Source: Candidatus Hydrogenedentota bacterium
Lineage (GTDB): Bacteria > JBFMHD01
Length of the DNA stretch: 11,190 bases
Direction: 5' to 3'
NCBI GenBank assembly: GCA_040752395.1
Contig: JBFMHD010000037.1
Span: 5,404 to 16,593 of the forward strand
The position numbers were made by a program, and so were the translations under genes. The notes below the pieces were generated by a model. The model saw only the letters and a list, made by a program, of their open reading frames with translations. It did not search any database and had not been told where the DNA came from. Positions 1 to 11,190 of the stretch are shown here, in pieces. Within the stretch, counting starts at the first letter, position 1. The number at the start of each line of letters is the position of its first letter.

Positions 1-78
1 ATTAAAAGATACGGCAAGGAAGTGTATATTTTCGCTTTCTTTACTTTTAACTTTTGACTTTTTACTTTTAACTTGTCA

Positions 79-145
79 TAGGAGTTAGAAGTTAGGAGTT
101 CGTAATAATAGCTCCGAGCTCCGAACTTTTTCGAAGGAGTCAACA
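79..145 (+). promoter_or_regulatory. Repeated leader element: (GGAGTTA)n ... (GCTCCGA)n hairpin, then a T-run and GAAGGAG Shine-Dalgarno. Copy A sits upstream of a 29-aa sORF
   Basis: AGTTCG(97-102) pairs with CGAACT(122-127), with G-U extensions. TTTTT(128-132) and AGGAG(135-139) follow. Near-identical to 1873-1941. Confidence 0.4.
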
Positions 146-235
146 TGAGCGCGTTTGCGCTCTACACTATTGGGTTCTTGGGTTCTTGCGTTATTGCGTT
201 CTACACAAAGGATGAAAAACTAAAGATGATATGAA
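146..235 (+). CDS. Candidate small ORF (29 aa, hydrophobic: MSAFALYTIGFLGSCVIAFYTKDEKLKMI)
   Basis: ATG lies 6 nt after GAAGGAG, the same leader as the downstream genes. The ORF overlaps a GAGCGC-gttt-GCGCTC hairpin and the GGGTTCTT octamer repeats, so it may be fortuitous. Confidence 0.15.
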
Positions 236-455
236 AAGAGTCACAAGTCGCAAGTCGTGAGTCAAAACAGGACTCAGGACTCAAGACTCAAGACTTTTCA
301 GCCGGCTCCGGGCCTCGGGCTCCAGCCGGCTGTAGTCCGTAGCCTGTAGCCTGTAGCCTGTACTGATACCTCTTACTTCTTCCGTTATCTTGCTTCTTGC
401 TTCTTGCTTCTACTTGATATTATTATAGTTACAATGTTTTTCGAAGGAGAGCCCC
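200..455 (+). repeat. Mosaic intergenic repeat cassette, copy 1. It is a chain of heptamer tandem tracts, then a GC-rich core, then the ATTATTAkAGTTACA-GTTTTTC-AGGAG tail
   Basis: Heptamer tracts: (GTCRYRA)x3, (AGGACTC/AAGACTC)x4, the GGCTCCGGGCCTCGGGCTCCAGCCGGCTG core, (TAGCCTG)x4 and (CTTGCTT)x3. Homologous to 6122-6305 and 10787-11027, with different tandem unit counts. Confidence 0.7.
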
Positions 456-462
456 CATAGAT

Positions 463-1863
463 ATGTATATTAATGAATCCCAGATGCAAAAGATTGTTGA
501 GAAAGTTATAGAGCGACTGAAAGATGCAGGTGAAATCATTATTGATGTTAATAGAGGTGATGGAATATTCGAGGATATAGAATCAGCGATTACAGCTGCT
601 AAAAATGCTCAAAAAACTCTGCTTGAATTATCACTTGAGAAAAGAATAGAGATAATCGAAAGTATGCGTAAATTTGCTCGAACACAGGTTCATCGATTCG
701 CAGTAATGGGCGTTGAAGAGACGGGTATGGGTAGAGTAGAAGATAAGATTGCTAAAAATTTGCTTGCTATAAATAAGACACCAGGTGTTGAAGACCTTAT
801 CCCATGGGTCTGTAGCGGCGACCACGGTCTTACCCTTGAAGAAAAAGCACCGTTTGGTGTTATTGGTTCCATTACTCCGTCCACAAATATTACTGAAACT
901 GTTATTGGCAATGCTATCTGTATGATAGCAGCAGGGAACAGCGTGGTGTTTAATCCTCACCCATCTGCTAAAAGAACAGCACAGGCTGCAATGGTGGTAC
1001 TGAATCAGGCTATAATAAAAGCAGCCGGACCAGCTAACCTTATAACCACAGTAAGAGAGCCAACCTTAAAATCAGCTGAGACTATTTTCACGCATCCTGA
1101 AGTTAAACTCGTACTTGTAACTGGCGGACCTGCTGTTGTTGAAGCAGCTATGAAATATCCTAAACGTTGCATCTGTGCAGGACCAGGAAACCCGCCTGTT
1201 GTTGTAGATGAAACAGCTGATATAAAAAAAGCAGCTAAAGATATAATTTTAGGTGCTACGCTGGATAATAATATTCTGTGCATCGCAGAAAAAGAGATAT
1301 TTGTTGTTGAGCCTGTATGTGATGTGCTTAACTCTGAATTAAAACGTGCCGGTGGATATCAATTGTCAGGGTATCAAATGGACCAATTAATGAAACATAT
1401 TGTTGTTAAAGAGGAAGTGGTGAACAGAGAACTTGTTGGCAGGAATGCTAATGTTATAGCTAAATATATAGGGTTAACTATACCTCAAGAAGTGAGACTA
1501 CTTTTTGCCGAGGTCTCAAAGGAGCATCCGCTTATTTATTTAGAACAGCTTATGCCCGTGATACCTGTTGTCAGAATTAAAAACGTAGAAGAAGGTATAG
1601 AACTATCTCTCAAAGCAGAGCACGGATACAAACACACAGCTATTATGCACTCTAAGAATATCGAGCGGTTATCAAGGATGGCACGTATTATGGATGTATC
1701 TATATTTGTTAAGAATGGGCCTTCCTGTGCAGGTCTTGGTTATGGTGGAGAAGGCTACACTACCTTTTCAATCGCAGGTACAACAGGTGAGGGCTTGACT
1801 ACACCAAAAACATTTACCCGACCCAGACGCTGTACACTGGTAGATTATTTTAGAATCGTATAA
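463..1863 (+). CDS. CoA-acylating aldehyde dehydrogenase, PduP/EutE-type BMC core enzyme, with an N-terminal encapsulation-peptide-like amphipathic helix
   Basis: 466 aa. ICAGPGNPP and NNILCIAEKEIFVVE motifs are typical of acylating ALDH. The N-terminus SQMQKIVEKVIERLKD is amphipathic and precedes the catalytic domain. Confidence 0.88.
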   Translation: MYINESQMQKIVEKVIERLKDAGEIIIDVNRGDGIFEDIESAITAAKNAQKTLLELSLEKRIEIIESMRKFARTQVHRFAVMGVEETGMGRVEDKIAKNLLAINKTPGVEDLIPWVCSGDHGLTLEEKAPFGVIGSITPSTNITETVIGNAICMIAAGNSVVFNPHPSAKRTAQAAMVVLNQAIIKAAGPANLITTVREPTLKSAETIFTHPEVKLVLVTGGPAVVEAAMKYPKRCICAGPGNPPVVVDETADIKKAAKDIILGATLDNNILCIAEKEIFVVEPVCDVLNSELKRAGGYQLSGYQMDQLMKHIVVKEEVVNRELVGRNANVIAKYIGLTIPQEVRLLFAEVSKEHPLIYLEQLMPVIPVVRIKNVEEGIELSLKAEHGYKHTAIMHSKNIERLSRMARIMDVSIFVKNGPSCAGLGYGGEGYTTFSIAGTTGEGLTTPKTFTRPRRCTLVDYFRIV

Positions 1864-1872
1864 GATGAAAAA

Positions 1873-1941
1873 GATAGGAGTTAGGAGTTCGTAATAATAG
1901 ATCCGAGCTCCGAACTCCGAACTCCGAAGTTTTTCGCAGGA
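1873..1941 (+). promoter_or_regulatory. Leader element copy B, a terminator-like hairpin immediately upstream of the SD of the pduS-like gene
   Basis: GGAGTTAGGAGTTCG(1877-1891) pairs with CGAACTCCGAACTCC(1911-1925), 15 bp with one mismatch. Then gaag, TTTTT(1930-1934) and GCAGGAG. Confidence 0.45.
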
Positions 1942-3282
1942 GTGATGGAATACTATATGGTAGAGAAAAAAAGAGATTTAATTGATATAATTAAAGAAGC
2001 AGGGGTTGTGGGCGCTGGCGGTGCTGGATTCCCTACACATATTAAATACAGCACAGAGGTTGAATATGTAATAGCAAATGGTGCCGAGTGCGAACCACTT
2101 CTACGTGTCGATCAACAATTAATGGATAAATATGCAAATGAGATAATACAGGCGTTACTTGCTGTAAAAGAAAGAGTAAAAGCAAAAGAAGCTATGGTGG
2201 GATTAAAATCTAAATATAAAGATGCTATTCGCTCCCTTAAAAAAGCTTCAAAAGATAGAGTAAGATTACATCTTCTTGAGAATGTGTATCCTGCCGGCGA
2301 TGAACATATTCTTCTTTATGATATGACAAAAAGAATCGTTCCAGAAGGTGGCATACCATTGCAGGTCGGCGCTGTTGTCTCTAATGTTGCCACACTTCTG
2401 TGGGTATATGAAGCAATGAATGGTAAACCTGTTACTGATAGGTGGCTGACAGTAACAGGTGAGGTTAATAAACCACAGACTATAAAGGTTCCGATTGGTA
2501 CCACAGTCAGAGATGTGCTGGAGTTTTGTGGCAGAGTAAAGATAAAAGATTTTAAAGTTATTGTTGGTGGACCAATAATGGGGGGTCTGGCTGAGAGTAT
2601 AGATCAAGGGATATTAAAGACTACAAGCGCCATTATTGTTTTACCAAAAGACCATTATGCTGTGTCTTACAAATATTTTGATTTAAATCTACATATCAAA
2701 ACGTCTAAAGCAGCGTGTTGTCAGTGTACATTCTGCACCAGTATTTGTCCGCGCAATTTAATAGGTCATTCAATAGAGCCTCATAAAATAATGAGGGGGA
2801 TATCATTTGGTGTTAATACAGCGGTCAAGGATGCTACGTTAGCTTTTTTATGTTGTGAATGCCAGTTGTGTTATTTCGCCTGTCCGATGAATTTAGCACC
2901 AGGAAGAATTAATGCTCTATTAAAACAGGAATTGACAAAAAAAGGCATAAAGAATCCGCATAATTTGAAACATAACAGGGCCCATATAATAAGAGAATAC
3001 AGGCTTCAACCTCTTAAAAGATTGATTGTTAAACTCGGGTTAACAGACTATGATGTTGATGCTCCTATATCTGATGAAACTTTTTTGCCAAAAAGGGTAA
3101 AAATATCATTGAAACAACATTTTGGCAAAAGTGCTGTTTGTGTGGTAAAAGAAGGGGCTAAAATTAAAAGAGGCGATGTTATAGGTGAAGCTGCTGAGGG
3201 TATATCAGCACGGGTTCATAGCTCTATAGATGGAATTGTAAAGAGTACACAGGGTGATGAGGTTATAATAAGTAGTGGATAA
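1942..3282 (+). CDS. PduS/RnfC-family flavoprotein with two [4Fe-4S] ferredoxin motifs
   Basis: AGVVGAGGAGFPTHIKY and NGAECEP motifs (RnfC/Nqo1-like NADH/FMN domain). Two CxxCxxCxxxCP motifs (CCQCTFCTSICP, CCECQLCYFACP). C-terminal barrel-sandwich-like segment. Start is ambiguous: GTG 1942, ATG 1945 or ATG 1957. Confidence 0.85.
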   Translation: MMEYYMVEKKRDLIDIIKEAGVVGAGGAGFPTHIKYSTEVEYVIANGAECEPLLRVDQQLMDKYANEIIQALLAVKERVKAKEAMVGLKSKYKDAIRSLKKASKDRVRLHLLENVYPAGDEHILLYDMTKRIVPEGGIPLQVGAVVSNVATLLWVYEAMNGKPVTDRWLTVTGEVNKPQTIKVPIGTTVRDVLEFCGRVKIKDFKVIVGGPIMGGLAESIDQGILKTTSAIIVLPKDHYAVSYKYFDLNLHIKTSKAACCQCTFCTSICPRNLIGHSIEPHKIMRGISFGVNTAVKDATLAFLCCECQLCYFACPMNLAPGRINALLKQELTKKGIKNPHNLKHNRAHIIREYRLQPLKRLIVKLGLTDYDVDAPISDETFLPKRVKISLKQHFGKSAVCVVKEGAKIKRGDVIGEAAEGISARVHSSIDGIVKSTQGDEVIISSG

Positions 3283-3298
3283 TCCATTGGTTATAGTT

Positions 3299-3326
3299 AG
3301 AAGCAAGAGGCAAGAAGCAAGATAAC
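3299..3326 (+). repeat. AGAAGCAAGAGGCAAGAAGCAAGATAAC tract, an inverted copy of 384-411
   Basis: Reverse complement of 384-411 with one mismatch. Related tracts at 6128-6150 and 10789-10800. Confidence 0.7.
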
Positions 3327-3361
3327 AGAAGAAGTGAGAAGTAAAGACCAAGGAGAGAACA

Positions 3362-3910
3362 ATGGAACAGGCTTTAGGGTTACTCGAGACAACGAGTGTC
3401 GCGTTAGGTGTTCAGGGTTGTGATGCGATGCTGAAATCAGGTAATGTTATATTGTTGGAGTCACGACCCACGTGTCCGGGTAAGCACTTTACATTAATTT
3501 CAGGTGAGGTCGGTGCTGTAAGAACAGCTATCGCAGCTGGTGAATTAGCTGCCTTCCCATCTGTGGTTCAGACAATGATTATCCCGAATGTTCACCCTTG
3601 TGTTATACCTGCGTTTACAGGTTCTAATATAGTAGAAGAGATAGAGGCTTTAGGTGTGATTGAGACCTATTCTTTAGCAGCCTGTGTTGAGATGGCTGAT
3701 GCAGCAGTAAAAGCTGCTGAAATTAAACTTATTGAAGTGCGATTAGGTTCAGGGCTTGCTGGTAAGTCATTTATATATTTAACAGGTACGGTGGGAGCTG
3801 TGAGGTCTGCTGTTTCTGCTTGTTTATCGCTTGAACATCATAAAGGATTGGTTCACTCAAGTATCATTATACCTTCACCGCATCCTGATTTAATCAAAGC
3901 GATTTTATAA
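3362..3910 (+). CDS. Tandem-BMC-domain shell protein (BMC-T), PduT-like, with the conserved Fe-S ligand Cys38
   Basis: Two BMC (PF00936-like) repeats (ALGLLET...GEVGAVRTAI and ALGVIETYSLAA...GTVGAVRSAV). The PTCPGKHF motif aligns with PduT TICPGKF. The Cys38 codon is tgt at 3473-3475. Confidence 0.88.
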   Translation: MEQALGLLETTSVALGVQGCDAMLKSGNVILLESRPTCPGKHFTLISGEVGAVRTAIAAGELAAFPSVVQTMIIPNVHPCVIPAFTGSNIVEEIEALGVIETYSLAACVEMADAAVKAAEIKLIEVRLGSGLAGKSFIYLTGTVGAVRSAVSACLSLEHHKGLVHSSIIIPSPHPDLIKAIL

Positions 3911-3932
3911 GAATGTCAGTCGACATTCTTTT
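3911..3932 (+). terminator. Intrinsic terminator-like hairpin GAATGTC-agtc-GACATTC followed by TTTT
   Basis: 7-bp perfect stem, 4-nt loop, T-run at 3929-3932, immediately after the pduT-like stop codon. Confidence 0.55.
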
Positions 3933-3971
3933 GGATACGGAACGATATCAGCTTTGCAGGATTAAGGAGTT

Positions 3972-4214
3972 ATGGATAAAGAATATATAGCTTCTGTGAT
4001 AACAGAAGTTATAAATGAAGAGATAAAGATAAAAGATAAACTTACATATCCAGCGAAAGAAGTCGTAAGAGTTGATGAGGTTATCGATGAAAGGATTATA
4101 AGAGATTTAATAAAAGGGAAAGCAGATGTTGTGAAAATAAAAAGTAGCGCAAAGATTACACCGCTTGCAATGGATAGAATAAAAGAGTCTAAAATTAAAG
4201 TTGTGAGAACATAA
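3972..4214 (+). CDS. Small (80 aa) BMC-locus protein of unknown function, with SAF/beta-grasp-like resemblance
   Basis: Strong RBS (AAGGAG, 5 nt before the ATG). The segment IIRDLIKGKADVVKI...AKITPLAMDRIKESKIKVV resembles the SAF-domain pattern xDIxKGxxVxKY...IGxAxxDIxxGExV (as in UxaA_N, FlgA, CpaB). This resemblance comes from memory only. Confidence 0.6.
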   Translation: MDKEYIASVITEVINEEIKIKDKLTYPAKEVVRVDEVIDERIIRDLIKGKADVVKIKSSAKITPLAMDRIKESKIKVVRT

Positions 4215-4215
4215 C

Positions 4216-4509
4216 GTGTTTTTTGCAAAAGTGATAGGTAATGTAGTTGCAACAAAAAAAAACGAAAATCTAAAAGGAAGAAGATTACTTCTTGTTCAGC
4301 CTGTAGACGAAAATATGAAACCCAGGGGGGACCCTGTTATTGCACTTGATTGGCTTGGCACAGATGAAGATGAATTAGTTTTTATAGTTCAGGGGAGAGA
4401 AGCTGTATATGAGGAATCTATGAAAGTAATGATACCAGCTGATGCTGGTATATTTGGTATTATTGATTCAGTGGATACAAAAGATAAGAACCTTTATAGA
4501 AAGCATTAG
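4216..4509 (+). CDS. BMC vertex protein (BMC-P), EutN/PduN/CcmL family, copy 1
   Basis: MFFAKVIGNVVATKK... is the classic EutN N-terminus. 97 aa. GTG start directly follows the upstream TAA stop. Confidence 0.85.
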   Translation: MFFAKVIGNVVATKKNENLKGRRLLLVQPVDENMKPRGDPVIALDWLGTDEDELVFIVQGREAVYEESMKVMIPADAGIFGIIDSVDTKDKNLYRKH

Positions 4510-4522
4510 GCTCGGGGGATGT

Positions 4523-4798
4523 ATGATCCTTTGTAAAGTTGTTGGTGTGGTTGTATCAACACAAAAAAATAAAAAGTTCGAGGGTGTTAAAATTTTTGTT
4601 GTACAGCCGATTAATCCCTCAGGCGAACCTATAGGAAATACTTTAATCTCTGCAGAATATGAGAATGATGCAGGCATCGGAGATACTGTATTAGTATTTA
4701 CTAAAGGGAATGCATCAAGATTAGTTGTAAGGGACCTTTCTTCACCAGTAGATTATGCTATCTGTGGTATTGTTGACAGAATAGAGATGAGTCATTAG
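4523..4798 (+). CDS. BMC vertex protein (BMC-P), EutN/PduN family, copy 2
   Basis: MILCKVVGVVVSTQKN... 91 aa. GGGGGA RBS 5 nt upstream. The 4442 start given in the ORF track is an upstream read-through extension. Confidence 0.85.
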   Translation: MILCKVVGVVVSTQKNKKFEGVKIFVVQPINPSGEPIGNTLISAEYENDAGIGDTVLVFTKGNASRLVVRDLSSPVDYAICGIVDRIEMSH

Positions 4799-4802
4799 TG
4801 GT

Positions 4803-5720
4803 TTACCATCTTTTGCGTTTCCAGAAAAGCATAAACCATACCATCGCAAGCAGAGCTATTAACATTATAATCCAGAAAGAAGAAAGACGCTCTTGAGAAA
4901 TAGGTAGCGGTACATTCATTGAGAAGATACTAACAACAAGTGTGGGAACCATAATTGAGATGGTAATAATATTCAAGGTTTTCATCAAAATATTAAGATT
5001 ATTATTTACGATTGAGGCACGGGCATCCATTAATCCTGCTAAAATATTTGAATATATTTCAGCTTGTTTATAACATTGAGAGTTTTCAATTGCTATATCA
5101 TCAAGTAGTTCAAGATTTTCCTGCGTGAGAACAATTTTGGTTGCATTATGTCTTATTTTTTCAATCAGCATAGAATTGGAATTAATAGAATTTAGATAAT
5201 AAACAAGACTCTTTTCAAGAGTGAATAAATTAAGGAGGTATTTATTTTCCATAGCATGAATTAATTTTTTTTCAAGTGAATCTGATACCATATTTATGAC
5301 CTTTAAATGTTCAAGATAATGATGGATTGAGCGATAGATAAGTCTGAGTAATAAATCCTGTAAAGACGTTATACGATTAAAGAGTTTTCCATCAAATAAT
5401 AAAGTGTTATCGGGTAAAATAACGATTAAATGTTCTTTAAAAAGAAAGAGTCCGACAGAATAGACCTTGAATAAAAATTTATCACTTGATGAATAGTTTT
5501 TAGGTTTTTTATAGATTATAGCGATATGCTCAGGCTCGAACTCCAATCGTGATAGCTCATCAGGGTCCAGAGCGGAATTAAGAGTGTGTTCATCGAGCTC
5601 GAATTCATCTAATAGATATTTTCTTTCAGCTTCATCAGGATTGACAAAGACTAAAATTTTAGCATCACCATCCGGGGCTTCTACGATTTTATCACCGAGT
5701 ATAAGATACTTTCTTAACAT
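4803..5720 (-). CDS. CorA-family divalent-cation transporter with an SMN motif in place of the canonical GMN
   Basis: 305 aa. C-terminal TM1-loop-TM2-KRKRW topology. The loop reads VVSIFSMNVPLP; the codon TCA=Ser was confirmed on the reverse strand at 4920-4946. Confidence 0.82.
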   Translation of the reverse strand: MLRKYLILGDKIVEAPDGDAKILVFVNPDEAERKYLLDEFELDEHTLNSALDPDELSRLEFEPEHIAIIYKKPKNYSSSDKFLFKVYSVGLFLFKEHLIVILPDNTLLFDGKLFNRITSLQDLLLRLIYRSIHHYLEHLKVINMVSDSLEKKLIHAMENKYLLNLFTLEKSLVYYLNSINSNSMLIEKIRHNATKIVLTQENLELLDDIAIENSQCYKQAEIYSNILAGLMDARASIVNNNLNILMKTLNIITISIMVPTLVVSIFSMNVPLPISQERLSSFWIIMLIALLAMVWFMLFWKRKRW

Positions 5721-5753
5721 TTTCTTATCTTCTCCACATTCTCTGAAGGTTAC

Positions 5754-6050
5754 TCACATTCTACGTTTAACAAGATGCGGTACCTCACGTTTTAGTATGC
5801 CGTTTAAAATACCATAAAGAGCTCTCTCGATATTTGGACGGTCAGTATTTGGAGGCAACGTAAGATCAAGTTTAATACGCGCTGAATCAATCAACATATT
5901 GTGAACCTTAATACCCATAATAATTATGTTTCTTTCTAACTGTTTTCTAATCCGATGTTTTAATCCCTCTGAGAGCCGTGAACGGCTCGCACGATCAGGC
6001 ATACTAAATGAAAGCTTAAGCTCAATGTTAACCCTTCGAATTACTTGCAT
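5754..6050 (-). CDS. Small hypothetical protein with a weak RbfA-like (ribosome-binding factor A) pattern
   Basis: 98 aa. Immediately upstream and co-oriented with the CorA gene. The patterns MPDRASRSRLSEGLKHRIRKQLE and ERALYGILNGILKREVPHL loosely match the RbfA N- and C-terminal motifs. An internal ATG at 6002 is an alternative start. Confidence 0.4.
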   Translation of the reverse strand: MQVIRRVNIELKLSFSMPDRASRSRLSEGLKHRIRKQLERNIIIMGIKVHNMLIDSARIKLDLTLPPNTDRPNIERALYGILNGILKREVPHLVKRRM

Positions 6051-6121
6051 AAATAATATCTTAACATATATGAAAATATTGTCTATAATTTATTTGACAT
6101 AATTCCCTCGCTTATAGGTTG

Positions 6122-6305
6122 TAAGAAGTAAGAAGCAAGAGGCAAGAAGTAGATAATATGTTGGCTCCGGGCTTGGGGTTCCAGACTCCAGCCGGCTGTA
6201 GTCCGTAGCCTGAAGCCTGTAGCCCGAAGAGATGTTTTTTTAATTTTTCATAGTAGGAGGTTATCAGTAAACAGAAAACCGAAAACCAAACACCGAACTT
6301 AAGAA
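6122..6305 (+). repeat. Mosaic intergenic repeat cassette, copy 2 (partial)
   Basis: It contains AGAAGCAAGAGGCAAGAAG, the GGCTCCGGGCTTGGGG...CAGCCGGCTGTAGTCCGTAGCC core, a T-run plus AGGAGG, (AAACCGA)n and ACACCGAACTTAAGAA (6290-6305). The last box matches 11012-11027. Confidence 0.65.
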
Positions 6306-6332
6306 TTTTACCGAAGACTGAAGGAATACTAG

Positions 6333-6367
6333 TTGACTTTGTAAAAAAATTAGTTATTATATAATCA
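6333..6367 (+). promoter_or_regulatory. Putative sigma70-like promoter for smpB (TTGACT ... TTATATAAT), which may give a leaderless mRNA
   Basis: TTGACT at 6333-6338. A TATATAAT-like -10 ends about 4 nt before the smpB ATG. No SD is present. Confidence 0.35.
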
Positions 6368-6811
6368 ATGAAAGTTATAACAGTTAATAAGAAAGCTGGG
6401 TTTAATTATCAAATATTTGAAAGGTTTGAAGCTGGTATAGTTCTTAAAGGTAGTGAGGTAAAATCAATAAGAGAAGGTAATATAAATTTAAAAGATGGTT
6501 ATTGTATAATGAAGGCAGATGAATTATATCTTATAAATGTGCATATATCAAGGTATAAGCCATCAGGAGTATTGAATCATGAACCTGAACGGGCACGAAA
6601 AATGCTCCTTCATAAAAGAGAATTAAAAAGATTGACAGGAAAGATCAATGAGAGAGGGTTAAGTATTATACCATTAAAGGTTTATATAAATCAAAAAGGC
6701 AGAATCAAAGTTGAGATAGGTTTAGCTAAGGGGAAAAGTAAGATTGATAAACGTGAGGATTTAAGAAAAAGAGCTATTGATAGAGAGATTGAGAGAGAGT
6801 TAAAGTATTGA
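6368..6811 (+). CDS. smpB: SsrA-binding protein SmpB
   Basis: 147 aa. KKAGFNYQIFERFEAGIVLKGSEVKSIREGNINLKDGY matches the SmpB signature. A basic C-terminal tail is present. The tmRNA gene follows on the same strand. Confidence 0.95.
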   Translation: MKVITVNKKAGFNYQIFERFEAGIVLKGSEVKSIREGNINLKDGYCIMKADELYLINVHISRYKPSGVLNHEPERARKMLLHKRELKRLTGKINERGLSIIPLKVYINQKGRIKVEIGLAKGKSKIDKREDLRKRAIDREIERELKY

Positions 6812-6850
6812 CGAATCTAAAGTATTATAGTAATATATAAAATTATAGGA

Positions 6851-6969
6851 GACAGAAGACAGAAGTTAAAAAGATACAAAGATTGAAAGATTCAAATGCA
6901 TTTTAACTTTTAATAGGAGGGTAAATAAATTTGCAATTTGCAATTTACAATGGAGCAAAGCGACAAGAA
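6851..6969 (+). repeat. Phase-coherent chain of heptamer tandem tracts upstream of the tmRNA
   Basis: (GACAGAA)x2, AAGATTG/AAAGATT, ATTTTAA/CTTTTAA, (AATTTGC)x3 and a GGAGCAAAGCGACA box (6952-6965). Confidence 0.6.
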
Positions 6970-6971
6970 AG

Positions 6972-7370
<399 letters not shown>

Positions 7371-7472
7371 GCTGACCTTATGGGAGGAAGAGTTCACAAG
7401 GATGTGAATAGAAGAAAATCACCGTGCCTGGAGCGAAGCGACAGCCGGAGTCGAACGAGAGTGAGCTAAAAG

Positions 7473-8177
7473 ATGAAGAATAAACCATCAGTTATAGGTG
7501 TTGTTCTGATTTTTTGCCTGCTACTTTTTAGTAACACTGATTGTATAAAAGCTCAGACTGCAAAAATATTGAGAGTTTGCATAGACCCGGGGCATGGTGG
7601 CGAAGATAGCGGCGTACCTGGTATGGCCGAACTCTTGGAAAAAGATGTTACTTTACAGATAGCAAAAAGAGTAAAGGAACAATTATCAGGTTATCCGAAT
7701 GTTGATATCGTGCTTACAAGAACGCTTGATATAACGTTAAACGATAAAGAAAGAATAAAAAGAATCTTTAACTCTCAACCCTCTCTGGTTATTTCATTAC
7801 ATACAGATGCTTCTTTAGATACAACTCTATCAGGAATAACAATATATAGTCTTGAAAACATAGTATCACCAATTTTAGGAAATGAACAAAAACAAGAAAT
7901 AATTAATAAAACATATAATGCTGCTGAAATAATTTACCAGATTTTTATTAAAAATATAATTTCTTTTGGCGTGAGCAAGCCGATAAAAGCGGATTTAGCG
8001 ACATATAGGAAGATAGGTCTCCCTGTAATTATGATTAATGCTGGATTTATAACTAATGCTGCTGATGAACTTATTATTTCAAAACCCGAGGGTTTAGAAG
8101 AGATAGCAAATAGTATCTCACAGGCAATTATTGGTTTAGAATCCCTCTTTATGGAATCTGTGCAATCAGAAAATTGA
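7473..8177 (+). CDS. N-acetylmuramoyl-L-alanine amidase (Amidase_3 family), secreted
   Basis: 234 aa. N-terminal signal peptide. The CIDPGHGGEDSG and SLHTDAS motifs are the Amidase_3 zinc-ligand signatures. Confidence 0.85.
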   Translation: MKNKPSVIGVVLIFCLLLFSNTDCIKAQTAKILRVCIDPGHGGEDSGVPGMAELLEKDVTLQIAKRVKEQLSGYPNVDIVLTRTLDITLNDKERIKRIFNSQPSLVISLHTDASLDTTLSGITIYSLENIVSPILGNEQKQEIINKTYNAAEIIYQIFIKNIISFGVSKPIKADLATYRKIGLPVIMINAGFITNAADELIISKPEGLEEIANSISQAIIGLESLFMESVQSEN

Positions 8178-8185
8178 TTTTTATT

Positions 8186-8420
8186 CAAGGGTTGAGGCAC
8201 TGCCAGAGAAGAATCTTATCTGCGGAATTTTTGCAATTCGTACAGAATTTTTGCTTTCGAGTCTGGCGTCTGAAGCATACGAATGGAGAATGGGTTGAGG
8301 CACTGCCTCATCCGTCTCTTTGCCAACAAAATTTCGCTTTTTGCATAGAGAATTCGCTTTTGCTGTATGGCATAGCAGATACCGAATGGTAGAATGGGTT
8401 GAGGCACTGCCTCATAATAC
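8186..8420. repeat. Three diverged ~104-bp tandem units, each carrying the palindrome TGAGGCA-c-TGCCTCA
   Basis: Palindromes at 8193-8207 (imperfect, right arm TGCCAGA), 8296-8310 and 8400-8414 (both perfect). Spacing is 103 and 104 bp. The units also share CGAATGG(T)AGAATGGG and GAATTTTTGC-like subrepeats. The period is not divisible by 3. Confidence 0.75.
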
Positions 8421-8469
8421 AATGAAAGCTGTACCTGAAAGTAAACGAGAAAAAAAAAGAGGTAAATCA

Positions 8470-9033
8470 ATGAGAAGAGTAGTATATATAATTATATTTT
8501 TAGCCGGGGTGATAGGTTTACTTTTAACAATAAAAACAAATTTCAATAAAATAAAAAGGGTTAATGAAATAAAAGGAGTTGCAGCATCTCAAACTCCGCT
8601 ACAAACCGAGAATGTGAGTATATATTTTGCTATTAAACAGCGAATGGAGTTACGCCAGGAAATAAGAATAGTTGAAAAAAGTAACACCATAGCTGGTAAA
8701 ATAAAAAGAATTATAGATGAAATGAAAAAGGGACCCCTGGATCCACAACTGAACAGAACCATACCTGCTGATATAGAAATTATGGATATATTCTTATCTT
8801 GTGACAGGGTATTTATTAATTTAGGGACCCACAATTTAGAAGAAATATTTATAAGCTTATCACAGGAGAGGATATTTATTAATTCTATTGTATTTTCTAT
8901 TCTGAAGAATATAGGGTATACCTATGATTCTGTAAGAATACTTATCAATGGGAAGGAGACAGAGGGAGTTCATATATATTTAGGAAGAGACTATAAAATA
9001 AGCGATTTTGAATCAGAAGAAGAAAGTCTATGA
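8470..9033 (+). CDS. GerMN-domain membrane-anchored protein
   Basis: 187 aa. N-terminal TM segment (VVYIIIFLAGVIGLLLTI). The body follows the GerMN pattern (VSIYFAIKQ...IRIVEK...IIDEMKKGP...IPADIEI...ILINGKE). AGAGGT RBS. The 8320 start in the ORF track is an extension through the repeat region. Confidence 0.65.
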   Translation: MRRVVYIIIFLAGVIGLLLTIKTNFNKIKRVNEIKGVAASQTPLQTENVSIYFAIKQRMELRQEIRIVEKSNTIAGKIKRIIDEMKKGPLDPQLNRTIPADIEIMDIFLSCDRVFINLGTHNLEEIFISLSQERIFINSIVFSILKNIGYTYDSVRILINGKETEGVHIYLGRDYKISDFESEEESL

Positions 9034-9602
9034 ATACTAAACCGGGGCAGATTATTTTAAGCAGTCTGTTTTTTATCTTTATTGGATATATAATTTACTG
9101 GGCGTTTTATTCAAAAATTGAAGAACCCAAAATCTTTAATAAAGCCATAGAAAAAAATGTTAAAAATTTAATTACAGGTGGTAAATATATTCGTGCATCA
9201 GAAGGTAAAATTCACTGGGAGATTACTGCAGATGAAACACAAGAAAAGGGCTCAGGCGAGATTAATTTAAAAAGAGTTTATTTAAAATTTTATGATATCG
9301 AGGCCGATACACCGATAATAGTAAATGCACTCGAGGCTATTTATAGCCCCAATAATAAAATCATTAAATTAAAAGATAATGTTGTTATAAAATACGGAGA
9401 TTTATTAATATTAACAGATGAACTTAATTATGAAGAAGAGAACGGATTTTTATTTAGTAAAAGTAATGTGGAGATAAGAGCCAATGAGAGCGTGATATAT
9501 GCCAGAGGATTGAAGGCTTATACAAGAGAAAAAAAATTGAAACTTTTTAATGTAAAAGGCAATTTAAGACCAGAAGATATAGAGGGGTTGAATAATTTAT
9601 GA
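9030..9602 (+). CDS. lptC: LPS export protein LptC
   Basis: 190 aa. N-terminal TM anchor. The C-terminal LKAYTREKKLKLFNVKGNLRPED matches the LptC end motif. ATGA overlap with the upstream gene. lptA and lptB follow. Confidence 0.78.
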   Translation: MNTKPGQIILSSLFFIFIGYIIYWAFYSKIEEPKIFNKAIEKNVKNLITGGKYIRASEGKIHWEITADETQEKGSGEINLKRVYLKFYDIEADTPIIVNALEAIYSPNNKIIKLKDNVVIKYGDLLILTDELNYEEENGFLFSKSNVEIRANESVIYARGLKAYTREKKLKLFNVKGNLRPEDIEGLNNL

Positions 9603-10081
9603 GAAAATTACTGCTGATATCAGTTGTATTTTTATTGTTAGGTAATACCGGGATAGCTTTAGAGGTAGAGAAGATACAGATCAATCATTCCGATGAGATG
9701 ATTTACGACGGGATTAAACATACGCTGGAATATACCGGCAGCGTGGATGTTACAAGCGACCAGATGGAATTAAAAGGTGAGAGAGTCATACTCTATTTTA
9801 ATGAGAAAGAAGATGAGATAATAAAAGCAGAGGCGTTCGGTAATGTATATATGAAAAAGGATGAATTCACTGCTGAAGCAGGTAAAGTAATTTATGAAAC
9901 CCAAAACGGGAAAATTACATTAGAAGAAAAACCAGTTGTTTATGGCGAGGGGAAAAAACTTAAGGCAGATTTTATAATCTACTTTGTTAAAGAGAAACGG
10001 ATTGATGCAAAGGGTAATGTATCGGGATTCTTTATACCACAGAAAAAAAAGAAGAAAGAAGATGAGTCAACTAAAAGCTGA
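9599..10081 (+). CDS. lptA: LPS transport periplasmic protein LptA (OstA-like)
   Basis: 160 aa. Signal peptide. OstA_N-like beta-jellyroll pattern. Lys-rich C-terminal tail. Position in the lptC-A-B operon. Confidence 0.75.
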   Translation: MRKLLLISVVFLLLGNTGIALEVEKIQINHSDEMIYDGIKHTLEYTGSVDVTSDQMELKGERVILYFNEKEDEIIKAEAFGNVYMKKDEFTAEAGKVIYETQNGKITLEEKPVVYGEGKKLKADFIIYFVKEKRIDAKGNVSGFFIPQKKKKKEDESTKS

Positions 10082-10784
10082 AAAAATATCAAAGAGGTTT
10101 GGGAATATAATCGCTGTTAATAATATAAGTCTTGAATTTAGTTGCAGCGAAGTTATTGGTCTGCTTGGACCAAACGGCGCAGGTAAAACAACAACGTTTT
10201 ATATTCTTATAGGATTGATAAAATCTGATACCGGCGATGTTTATATTGACGAACAGAAAATTACAGATTTTCCTATCCATAAAAGAGCACAATTAGGCAT
10301 CGCGTATCTTCCACAGGAACCATCAATATTCCGCAACCTTACTGTTAGAAATAATTTATTAGCGATACTTGAGTATCTCCCTCTTATAGAAGAGGAACGT
10401 GAAAAAAGAATTAATGAAATTTTACTCGATTTTAATCTCGGAAAGATTGTAGATTCTATGGGTTATAGTTTGAGCGGCGGTGAGAGAAGACGAGTTGAAA
10501 TAGCACGAACTTTGCTTCGTAAACCGAGATTCCTTTTGCTCGATGAACCTTTCTCCGGTATCGATCCCATTAAAGTTGATGAACTAAAAAAAGAGATAAT
10601 AAGACTTAAAGAAAAAAATATCGGCATAGTTATAACAGACCATAATGTTAGAGAATTACTTGAGATAACTGATAGAGCTTACATAATTAACAATGGTGAG
10701 GTATTGATAGAGGGAAATTCAAAAGATATAATCGAGAGTGAAGAGGCACGAAATATTTATCTGGGTGAGAATTTTAAATTGTGA
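10062..10784 (+). CDS. lptB: LPS export ABC transporter ATP-binding protein LptB
   Basis: 240 aa from the ATG at 10062. Walker A GPNGAGKTT. ABC signature LSGGERRRVEIAR. Walker B LLLDEPFSGID. Overlaps the lptA end by 20 nt. The 9984 start in the ORF track is an extension. Confidence 0.9.
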   Translation: MSQLKAEKISKRFGNIIAVNNISLEFSCSEVIGLLGPNGAGKTTTFYILIGLIKSDTGDVYIDEQKITDFPIHKRAQLGIAYLPQEPSIFRNLTVRNNLLAILEYLPLIEEEREKRINEILLDFNLGKIVDSMGYSLSGGERRRVEIARTLLRKPRFLLLDEPFSGIDPIKVDELKKEIIRLKEKNIGIVITDHNVRELLEITDRAYIINNGEVLIEGNSKDIIESEEARNIYLGENFKL

Positions 10785-10786
10785 CT

Positions 10787-11027
10787 TAGAAGCAAGAGGC
10801 ACAAAGGCACAGAGGCACAAAGTATGAAAAGAGTCGTGAGTCAAAACAGGACTCGAGACTCAAGACTCAAGACTTTTTAGCAGGCTCCGGGCTTCGGGCT
10901 CCAGCCGGCTGTAGTCCGTAGCCCGTAGCCTGTACCCCGAATTATTAGAGTTACAGCGTTTTTCAGAGGAGCGAAGCGACAATTAGGTTATCGGTGAACT
11001 GACCACCTAACACCGAACTTAAGAAAC
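10787..11027 (+). repeat. Mosaic intergenic repeat cassette, copy 3
   Basis: AGAAGCAAGAGGCAC, (GAGGCAC/AAGGCAC)x3, ATGAAAAGAGTC...(GACTCAA)n...GGCTCCGGGCTTCGGGCTCCAGCCGGCTGTAGTCCGTAGCC, ATTATTAGAGTTACAGCGTTTTTCAGAGGAG, GGAGCGAAGCGACA and ACACCGAACTTAAGAA. Collinear with copy 1 but with fewer tandem units. Confidence 0.7.
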
Positions 11028-11151
11028 TCTATCGATAAAATAGACATAAAATTGACGGTAATATATTAAAATATTGACAAATATAATTTTTTTTAAAAGA
11101 TTTTTAATGAAAAAATACTTTAAAATAAAGAAATTATATTTTAAAAAAAGA

Positions 11152-11186
11152 CTTGACAAAATGGTATAAAGCTTGCTATATATTTT
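11152..11186 (+). promoter_or_regulatory. Putative sigma70 promoter (TTGACA, ~18 nt spacer, TATATA) reading out of the window
   Basis: TTGACA at 11152-11157. TATATA about 18 nt downstream. Sits in an AT-rich tract. Confidence 0.35.
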
Positions 11187-11190
11187 TATG

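Follow-up and report, generated by a model that had tools for sequence, protein, structure and literature searches.

Heptamer arrays and hairpins with a 7-nt period in the intergenic DNA of an uncultured Hydrogenedentota bacterium

The spacers between genes in an 11,190-nt stretch of DNA from a Candidatus Hydrogenedentota bacterium (contig JBFMHD010000037.1 of assembly GCA_040752395.1, forward strand, positions 5,404 to 16,593; hereafter the window) are rich in short tandem arrays of heptamers. These arrays are absent from nearly all coding DNA, differ in length between paralogous copies by whole repeat units, recur as composite modules at several sites and in many cases are paired so that they can form hairpins. 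We think it probable that they are heptameric simple sequence repeats (SSRs) which gain and lose units by slippage, are eliminated from genes because they shift the reading frame and, in this lineage, have come to form dispersed, hairpin-forming mosaics. The window has an overall GC content of 36% and comprises 2045 nt of non-coding DNA (tmRNA excluded) and 9145 nt of genes plus tmRNA. Coordinates of all features are given in Table 1.

A first-pass annotation, made from the sequence alone, had described a period of 7 nt in the spacers, and this was borne out. Pooled lag-7 identity is 0.383 in non-coding DNA versus 0.275 in coding DNA; the only further peak in the non-coding profile is an echo at lag 14 (0.342). 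Five spacers exceed their dinucleotide-preserving shuffles with z scores of 4.2 to 10.9, whereas all 14 coding sequences lack a lag-7 signal when compared to codon shuffles (|z| < 1.4), just as had been stated for the genes. Tandem Repeats Finder (TRF) returned 27 arrays in the window; after overlap removal, 19 of period 7 and 3 of period 8 remained, nearly all of them in spacers. Arrays of these two periods cover 495 of 2045 non-coding nt (24%) versus 35 of the 9145 nt in genes plus tmRNA (0.4%), and each of the 13 runs in a sliding-window map of lag-7 identity falls in a spacer. The 8-mer tracts noted earlier were also recovered by TRF, at 170-202, 6870-6896 and 10797-10822. The claim that the pattern extends to parts of every other spacer was too broad, as four spacers (3911-3971, 5721-5753, 7334-7472 and 8178-8469) have no period-7 signal.

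Within positions 239-415, the sequence parses cleanly as 25 heptamers on one 7-nt lattice. Units drift along this region by one or two substitutions a step (CTGTAGC, CTGTACT, CTTACTT, CTTCCGT, CTTCTTG), the pattern that would be expected if units mutate and are then amplified. At about five junctions, read off the lattice, neighbouring units are no more alike than chance, and in-phase identity is not significant past lag 21 (lag 28, z = 1.2). The single phase proposed earlier thus holds only inside blocks, and in-phase identity has faded by lag 28. Phase across unlike motifs was rejected as a separate finding because in-phase identity fades and the phase becomes undefined. At least 13 different motifs are present within 2 kb. 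The motifs quoted in the annotation occur where it placed them, with several of the three- and four-fold counts including one-mismatch variants.

Three module types, which we call AB, CD and F, have complementary heptamer arms, and their hairpins show the same period of 7. Predicted free energies (ΔG) of the hairpins range overall from -17 to -44 kcal/mol, with z scores down to -6.4. The AB hairpin at 236-298 (-26.7 kcal/mol, z = -6.4; -27.0 kcal/mol on the - strand) is a series of 4-6-bp helices with 3x3 loops between them. In the CD hairpins, 6-bp helices alternate with one C·U or U·U mismatch every 7 nt (ΔG of -31 to -44 kcal/mol), and their GC content of 67-72% contrasts sharply with that of the surrounding window. 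The F hairpin has 14 pairs with a single A·G mismatch (ΔG of -16 to -22 kcal/mol) and is followed by U5 and AGGAG close before start codons; in F1, the sequence concerned, TTTTTCGAAGGAG, is a U-run plus a Shine-Dalgarno-like sequence. F1 (-16.8 kcal/mol, z = -2.5) is 93% identical to its paralogue at 1872-1916, and F2, which sits inside an operon, folds with -22.4 kcal/mol (z = -4.2). A tail of the form TTTTTC-N2-5-AGGAG occurs five times, compared to 0.06 expected. The E tracts and the G tracts, (AAACCGA)n, gave no fold, and no significant fold was found in the arrays before tmRNA.

Modules are found in more than one place, both within the window and on a second contig; lineage DNA covered here is the 11-kb window plus one contig of 2.2 kb (JBFMDD010000128.1, or L002). 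Positions 253-358 match 10832-10937 over 106 nt with 93% identity at a distance of 10.6 kb. CD hairpins start at 301, 6163 and 10880, with a fourth copy on L002, and F hairpins start at 76 and 1871. The E tract is present four times, once inverted (367-412 versus 3298-3343, 46 nt, 91% identity); its copy at 367-412 lies between a CD hairpin and the tail, an arrangement seen in this copy alone. The G tract occurs twice, the copy at 6244-6305 matching 10997-11025. L002 belongs to another metagenome-assembled genome (MAG) record, possibly of a sister genome or of the same one. Its CD hairpin and adjoining tail differ from the window by 1 mismatch in 88 nt, and the left neighbour is different. Composite modules thus occur at three or more sites in the window and on another contig, and we therefore regard them as dispersed mosaic elements. 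Judging from the sequences, they are joined differently at each site, much as in the mosaics of bacterial REP-containing elements (BIMEs). A scan of a genome collection for the 21-nt CD core gave at least one contig, and the same 21-mer had no match in JGI metagenomes.

Length differences between paralogues fall in whole units. The A arrays differ by 14 nt, the copy at 236-298 being longer than that at 10831-10877; the right arm of F2 is 14 nt longer than that of F1; the left arms of CD copies differ by 7 and 7 nt (the comparison of 6163-6226 with L002 included); and the G array at 6244-6305 is 7 nt longer than its paralogue. Gaps of other lengths between paralogues are confined to module junctions. 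The repeats also appear to be young. In the nearest relative of the aldehyde dehydrogenase gene, on a GC-rich Logan contig, two matching spacers are 70 nt and 20 nt long and free of repeats, compared to >460 nt and 78 nt at the same junctions of the window. Because the relative's spacers are short and repeat-free, we interpret the repeats as a lineage-specific gain. Both observations agree with the iterated tandem duplication suggested in the annotation, which had missed the hairpin pairing and the dispersed modules.

We infer the following mechanism. Arrays would lengthen and shorten in whole 7-nt (sometimes 8-nt) units by strand slippage at replication. Point mutation would make unit variants, and their amplification would give runs of 2-5 near-identical units, with motifs switching along the spacer. 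As 7 is not divisible by 3, gains and losses of this kind in genes would shift the reading frame and be removed, leaving the signal confined to non-coding DNA. The arrays make up a limited set of modules (AB, CD and F hairpins; E and G arrays; the tail of U-run plus AGGAG) that has been copied into many spacers in varied combinations. Where arms are complementary, the DNA or its transcript can form long hairpins interrupted at 7-nt intervals by a mismatch or internal loop, and these arms can pair 7 nt out of register, which would favour 7-nt gains and losses. Given their location in 5' leaders and between cistrons, the modules, if they affect gene expression at all, would most likely act on the ends or stability of mRNA or on the access of ribosomes.

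Similar arrays are present well beyond this lineage. A metagenome scan for (GTAGCCN)3 yielded at least 120 contigs totalling 565 kb, with GC contents of 0.38-0.74 among the contigs listed. With the query motif excluded, 7 is the commonest non-triplet period in these contigs (115 period-7 arrays of 88 motifs versus 40 arrays of period 8 and 32 of period 10). Only 11.6% of the sequence lies outside stop-to-stop open reading frames (ORFs), and this fraction holds 42% of the period-7 arrays, compared to ∼10% of arrays with periods 6, 9 and 12. Period-7 arrays are thus about four-fold enriched outside ORFs, and triplet-multiple periods dominate within them. The annotation had envisaged a process acting specifically on non-coding DNA; given the dominance of triplet periods within ORFs, selection against 7-nt frameshifts would fit better. 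About one quarter of the internal arrays lie no more than 300 nt from a complementary GGCTAC array, and one fifth have a different heptamer array within 60 nt. Some left arms share the GGCTTC and GGCTCC variants of the window, and GTAGTC often flanks GTAGCC, as it does in the window. Among the GC-rich contigs, L098, L019 and L108 carry (GTAGCCN)n arms that flank or abut classic terminator hairpins with U-runs. There the arrays often start at the TAG stop codon of the upstream gene, and a 7-nt period puts TAG in all three frames within 21 nt.

One of these contigs allowed variants within a population to be compared. L050 (40% GC) contains a composite of (GTAGCCT)n and (GACTGYAA)n modules three times, and its closest named relatives at the protein level belong to Bacteroidota (Marinigracilibium, Mangrovivirga and Saccharicrinis). 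We compared L050 with four contigs encoding an identical 354-aa outer-membrane-like protein, focusing on the spacer upstream. Variants of this spacer differ by exactly one ATCCAGG unit and by two CAGTCTTA octamer units (16 nt). The annotation had suggested looking for unit-count polymorphism between strains; such polymorphism is documented for this Bacteroidota sister system, which carries GTAGCCT, rather than for the organism of the window itself. In three of the five variants (L123, L124 and L126, compared to L050), a 38-nt inverted-repeat element (GCCTGCCTGCC...GGCAGGCAG) lies inside an octamer array, and a fourth variant differs again. On this sequence comparison, small hairpin elements seem to use arrays as sites of insertion.

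Several observations weigh against the slippage mechanism as a full account. The arrays contain only 2-5 units, and arrays this short usually slip at low rates. By itself, slippage leaves the complementarity of the arms unexplained, and it explains neither the presence of CD hairpins of ∼70% GC in 36% GC DNA nor the movement of modules. Nor does it account for the Y·U mismatch occupying the same position in 13 of 14 CD unit pairs (counted by hand in four copies). The number of units is unmatched between arms (3 versus 2 in F1, 2 versus 4 in F2). GTAGCC and GTAGTC units recur in distant phyla, which, in a scan run without control motifs, hints at something beyond the random birth of motifs. Finally, the case for slippage in this lineage is built from paralogues, because no relative of ≥90% identity is present among 5.8 billion clusters.

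It is conceivable, if rather unlikely, that the modules work first and foremost at the RNA level, as cis-regulatory cassettes kept by selection, with the heptamers a by-product of how they grow. Hairpins in leaders and intercistronic regions would then serve as attenuators, terminators or stabilisers of 3' ends, and Shine-Dalgarno-like (TAGGAGT) and anti-Shine-Dalgarno-like (ACTCCGA, GGCTCC) heptamers would tune ribosome access. A regulatory role of this kind has been proposed by MacGregor for TAACTGA repeats just upstream of start codons, at the level of translation (PMC4679880). The oriented modules all lie on the + strand, as do the flanking genes (tail, 5 of 5; AB-CD, 3 of 3 in the window plus L002; F, 2 of 2). 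However, these counts come from paralogous copies and so are not independent; besides, 12 of the 14 genes are on the + strand, and E modules are found on either strand. Downstream of the F hairpins, U5 and AGGAG come shortly ahead of start codons, whereas tail copies at 6244 and 10959 have a Shine-Dalgarno-like site with no ORF behind. As candidate intrinsic terminators, the F modules have a 14-bp stem and U5 but a 12-nt loop, and the U-run of F2 lies 4-11 nt past the stem. A consensus terminator scan called no module on the + strand, F1 and F2 included, and promoter-like sites in a consensus promoter scan were not above shuffles in DNA this rich in AT. In a search with Rfam 15 covariance models, tmRNA (6972-7333) was the sole match at E ≤ 1, and no module matched a family.

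Comparison of the two strands bears on the same idea. RNA from the (ACTTTTA) array can pair with the (TAGGAGT) array that follows it in F1, a pairing that needs G·U and is 10 kcal/mol better on the + strand (-27.0 versus -16.9 kcal/mol). Each of the four CD copies is also 3-7 kcal/mol better on the + strand. Overall, hairpin energies are similar on the two strands, with an advantage of 0-10 kcal/mol for the + strand, and opposed positions include 14 G·U pairs versus 6 A·C oppositions. Since strand energies are similar and 14 versus 6 is not a significant asymmetry, we see no firm sign of selection on one RNA strand. Strand asymmetry was accordingly rejected as proof of RNA-level selection, the copies not being independent in any case. 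A hand comparison of the four CD copies, which did not include a formal covariation count, revealed no compensatory changes.

We judge it unlikely that CD and its companions are selfish elements akin to REP/REPIN sequences or MITEs, moved by a transposase encoded elsewhere (a REP-associated tyrosine transposase reading GTAG beside a GC-rich hairpin would be an example), possibly across phyla, with slippage secondary. CD hairpins are imperfect palindromes whose high GC content sets them apart from the DNA around them, and the modules are multi-copy, strictly extragenic and arranged in BIME-like mosaics. GTAG, a hallmark of REP elements, recurs in the CD right arm. GGCTNC/GTAGCC arms are found in unrelated GC-rich and Bacteroidota contigs as well, and some Bacteroidota variants have the 38-nt hairpin inserted in an array. 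Arguing against such elements, the window encodes no transposase (RAYT, of the Y1 type, included), no terminal inverted repeats or target-site duplications were recognised, and most metagenome (GTAGCCN) arrays are single, without a partner arm. We also know of no REP element that is internally 7-nt periodic. A broader version of this idea, which we consider quite unlikely, is that (GGCTNCN)n/(GTAGCCN)n hairpins are cross-phylum, actively mobile GC-rich elements built on a heptad lattice, recruited here as leader or intercistronic cassettes with tails of U-run and Shine-Dalgarno sequence. The Y·Y mismatch at every 7 nt would then be a recognition feature and not a sign of decay, and spread would be by an unrecognised transposase of the REP-associated type or by horizontal transfer. 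In favour of this version, the hairpins keep ∼70% GC in a 36% GC host, and their units are also present in Bacteroidota and in many GC-rich bacteria of soil and sediment.

The arrays could in principle be bound by a protein that recognises heptamers in DNA or RNA, or they could be contingency loci in which repeat number switches the expression of neighbours, like the heptanucleotide repeats upstream of the hmw genes of Haemophilus influenzae. Arrays lie in promoter and leader regions, and repeat number varies between copies. Heptanucleotide repeats control hmw1A expression (PMC8262952), and S1, Csp and CsrA have been proposed as binders of TAACTGA repeats (PMC4679880). On the other hand, at least 13 motifs in 2 kb argue against a single reader protein, tracts have only 2-5 units and the neighbours are housekeeping loci (smpB, tmRNA, lptB, microcompartment genes) rather than surface or contingency genes, all of which makes this explanation very improbable. 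An assembly or sequencing artefact is hardly credible: tandem repeats are known to trouble MAG assembly, but reads are long compared to these arrays, and the genes and the tmRNA on either side are intact. In addition, copies at several loci and on another contig are distinguished by point differences, and many independent assemblies show the same architecture.

Table 1. Repeat features, spacers with a period-7 signal and genes of the window
Feature	Position	Strand	Basis or remark
(ACTTTTA)∼4.6 array	35-74	+	TRF
F1: (TAGGAGT)3, 12-nt loop, (GCTCCGA)2, then TTTTTCGAAGGAG	76-139	+	TRF
Period-8 tract (GGGTTCTT x2, GCGTTATT-like x2)	170-202	+	TRF; within 29-codon ORF 145-234
AB hairpin: (AGTCRYR)3.5, loop AAAACAG, (GACTCAR)4	236-298	+	Fold; TTTT after
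CD hairpin: (GGCTYCR)3, centre GCCGGC, (GTAGYCY)4	301-362	+	Fold; 69% GC
E module, (AAGCAAG)n on - strand	367-412	-	Non-folding, ΔG ∼ -1 kcal/mol
Tail motif TTTTTCGAAGGAG	437-449	+	13 nt before aldehyde dehydrogenase start codon
F2: (TAGGAGT)2, loop, (RCTCCGA)4, then TTTTTCGCAGGAG	1871-1942	+	TRF; aldehyde dehydrogenase / PduS/RnfC-like spacer
E module (AGAAGCA/AGAGGCA units)	3297-3345	+	TRF; directly upstream of BMC shell gene ribosome-binding site
E module copy	6117-6152	+	TRF; divergent promoter spacer
CD hairpin copy, four units per arm	6163-6226	+	Fold, -34.3 kcal/mol
Tail motif TTTTTCATAGTAGGAG, then G array (AAACMGA units)	6244-6305	+	No ORF start after Shine-Dalgarno-like site
Arrays before tmRNA: (AGACAGA)2.3, (AAAGATTC)3.4 of period 8, (AATTTGC)3.4	6846-6958	+	TRF
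Partial E module into period-8 (AGGCACAR)3 tract	10786-10822	+	TRF
AB hairpin copy, short A arm	10831-10877	+	Fold, -16.7 kcal/mol, z = -3.8
CD hairpin copy, 72% GC	10880-10939	+	Fold, -38.4 kcal/mol, z = -5.6
Tail motif TTTTTCAGAGGAG, then GGAGCGAAGCGACA, then G' module	10959-11025	+	No ORF behind
Spacer	1-462		Lag-7 z = 10.9
Spacer	1864-1941		Lag-7 z = 5.8
Spacer	3283-3361		Lag-7 z = 4.2
Spacer	6051-6367		Lag-7 z = 7.7
Spacer	10785-11190		Lag-7 z = 5.1
Aldehyde dehydrogenase, microcompartment gene set	463-1863	+	
PduS/RnfC-like flavoprotein	1942-3282	+	
Tandem-BMC-domain shell protein	3362-3910	+	
80-aa ORF	3972-4214	+	
Two EutN pentamer proteins	4216-4798	+	
CorA	4803-5720	-	
98-aa ORF	5754-6050	-	
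smpB	6368-6811	+	
tmRNA	6972-7333	+	Rfam match
Amidase_3	7473-8177	+	
Germane-domain protein	8470-9033	+	
lptC, lptA, lptB	9030-10784	+	lptC and lptA named from position and gene order alone

The aldehyde dehydrogenase and LptB encoded in the window are identical (100%) to MEW5692360.1 and MEW5692373.1, MAG proteins of Candidatus Hydrogenedentota bacterium encoded on a 16.6-kb contig. Exact-match look-ups of SmpB and the aldehyde dehydrogenase, made to find further strains, returned no record. Among 5.8 billion protein clusters, the nearest other relative of the aldehyde dehydrogenase is 82% identical, and LptB (10065-10784) has no other relative above 60% identity. The 82% relative is encoded on a GC-rich contig (L001) with the same gene order. 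Either the microcompartment locus has been transferred horizontally or the lineage is very poorly sampled.

Other features of the spacers were recorded alongside the heptamer arrays. The 29-codon ORF at 145-234 (MSAFALYTIGFLGSCVIAFYTKDEKLKMI) has AAGGAG 6 nt upstream and holds 8-mer tracts. The L002 copy has 7 nt where the window has 46 nt with the period-8 tract, and hence lacks 39 nt (in frame) and the stop codon. For this reason the ORF is probably not a gene, and a leader peptide is the less likely reading. The 14-mer GGAGCRAAGCGACA occurs at 6952-6965, 7430-7443 and 10968-10981, all three on the + strand, with 0 expected; one of them stops 7 nt short of the tmRNA, and another lies 30 nt ahead of the amidase start codon. 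Within 6333-6370, a promoter-like TTGACT-16-TATTAT (overlapping TATAAT) reaches to ∼5 nt from the smpB ATG; no Shine-Dalgarno sequence intervenes, and the smpB mRNA may on this basis be leaderless. Between the Amidase_3 and Germane-domain genes (8178-8469), a ∼103-nt unit is present ∼2.8 times. Its 25-nt core, AGAATGGGTTGAGGCACTGCCTCAT, is the same at 8287 and 8391, and the stretch at 8184 shares 72% identity with it. The 7-nt period is missing from this repeat and its predicted fold is weak (z = -1.35), for which reasons it was set apart from the heptamer feature; Rfam gave no match to it.

The window represents an extreme case, with about a quarter of its non-coding DNA made up of heptamer arrays, in a new host from a deep-branching uncultured phylum. 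It also shows clearly that such arrays can be organised both into complementary pairs, whose hairpins have mismatches every 7 nt, and into modules that are used again and again. The scan of metagenomes suggests a wide occurrence of the units in different phyla, with Bacteroidota among the carriers and GC-rich soil bacteria probably so. Should this spread reflect a shared mechanism or a mobile element, not independent slippage, the repeats would be a general and overlooked shaper of bacterial intergenic DNA. If not, they serve mainly as a warning for annotation, as they create sequences resembling ribosome-binding sites and terminators and will fragment assemblies.

How the arrays relate to described repeat families can be judged from their units. 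STRR elements of the cyanobacteria Calothrix and Anabaena, which we take to be the tandem heptanucleotides described for Calothrix, have the consensus units CCCCAGT, TTGGTCA and CAACAGT. These three units are absent from the window, single or tandem, and TAACTGA is present as two single copies, none tandem. Known heptamer families (STRR1-3, TAACTGA, GGGAATC, GGGGAYT and hmw ATCTTTC) were accordingly rejected as the identity of the repeats, as none is tandem in the window. A literature search found no paper on GTAGCC arrays or Hydrogenedentes repeats.

Intergenic heptanucleotide repeats as a class have been reported before (PMC4679880, PMC4692102), contrary to the annotation's view that they are not a described feature of typical bacterial genomes. 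Mrázek et al. 2007, as cited in PMC4679880, found heptanucleotides to be the most abundant class of long SSR in most repeat-rich genomes and put forward polymerase slippage as their origin. Like the long 7-nt SSRs, the window arrays are head-to-tail, above chance, biased to intergenic DNA, phylogenetically sporadic and attributed to slippage (PMC4679880, PMC4692102). Unlike long SSRs, they are very short and very numerous, fill 24% of the non-coding DNA with motifs that abut, and are paired into hairpins within dispersed composite modules.

Three tandem heptanucleotides are described for Calothrix, as cited in PMC4692102, Microcystis has mixed repeating heptamers, and Cyanothece strains differ by indels in 7-nt increments (PMC4679880). 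STRR and Microcystis repeats resemble those of the window in having several tandem heptamers per genome and mixed assemblages, and 7-nt indels are seen among cyanobacterial strains. They differ in host, Hydrogenedentota not being cyanobacteria, and in units; in addition, we did not find hairpins with periodic mismatches described for STRR. In Bacteroidetes, spacers contain assemblages of heptamer repeats, and those of close relatives are shorter and repeat-free (PMC4679880). TAACTGA repeats of Beggiatoaceae, Cyanobacteria and Bacteroidetes come in sets of 2-6 copies, most of which closely precede start codons (MacGregor 2015; PMC4679880), and are like the window arrays in being short, mostly intergenic and often upstream of start codons. 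However, they have one dominant motif that is almost never inverted (one indirect repeat versus 169 direct sets; PMC4679880), whereas the window has many motifs and frequent complementary pairs.

Rehm et al. 2015 reported intergenic heptamers to be strongly over-represented in Xanthomonas and Nostoc, with inverted pairs able to make stem-loops and lengths that vary among close relatives (PMC4692102). These GGGAATC/GGGGAYT arrays share with the window their intergenic location and some inverted pairs or stem-loops, but their units are G-rich and quadruplex-forming, and those of the window are not. REP, BIME and REPIN sequences (PMC3116915) are comparable in form to CD as extragenic, GC-rich imperfect palindromes that are multi-copy, form mosaics and lie between operon genes; in this respect CD has 67-72% GC, ΔG of -31 to -44 kcal/mol and 3 copies in 11 kb plus 1 on L002. 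REP elements, in contrast, are not built of tandem heptamers, and the window has no RAYT gene and no REPIN doublet, the CD copies all being single and in the same orientation. Intergenic heptanucleotide repeats, then, are already known from cyanobacteria, Xanthomonas, Beggiatoaceae and Bacteroidetes; what is new here is the Hydrogenedentota host, the exceptional density of the arrays and their organisation into hairpins with periodic mismatches.

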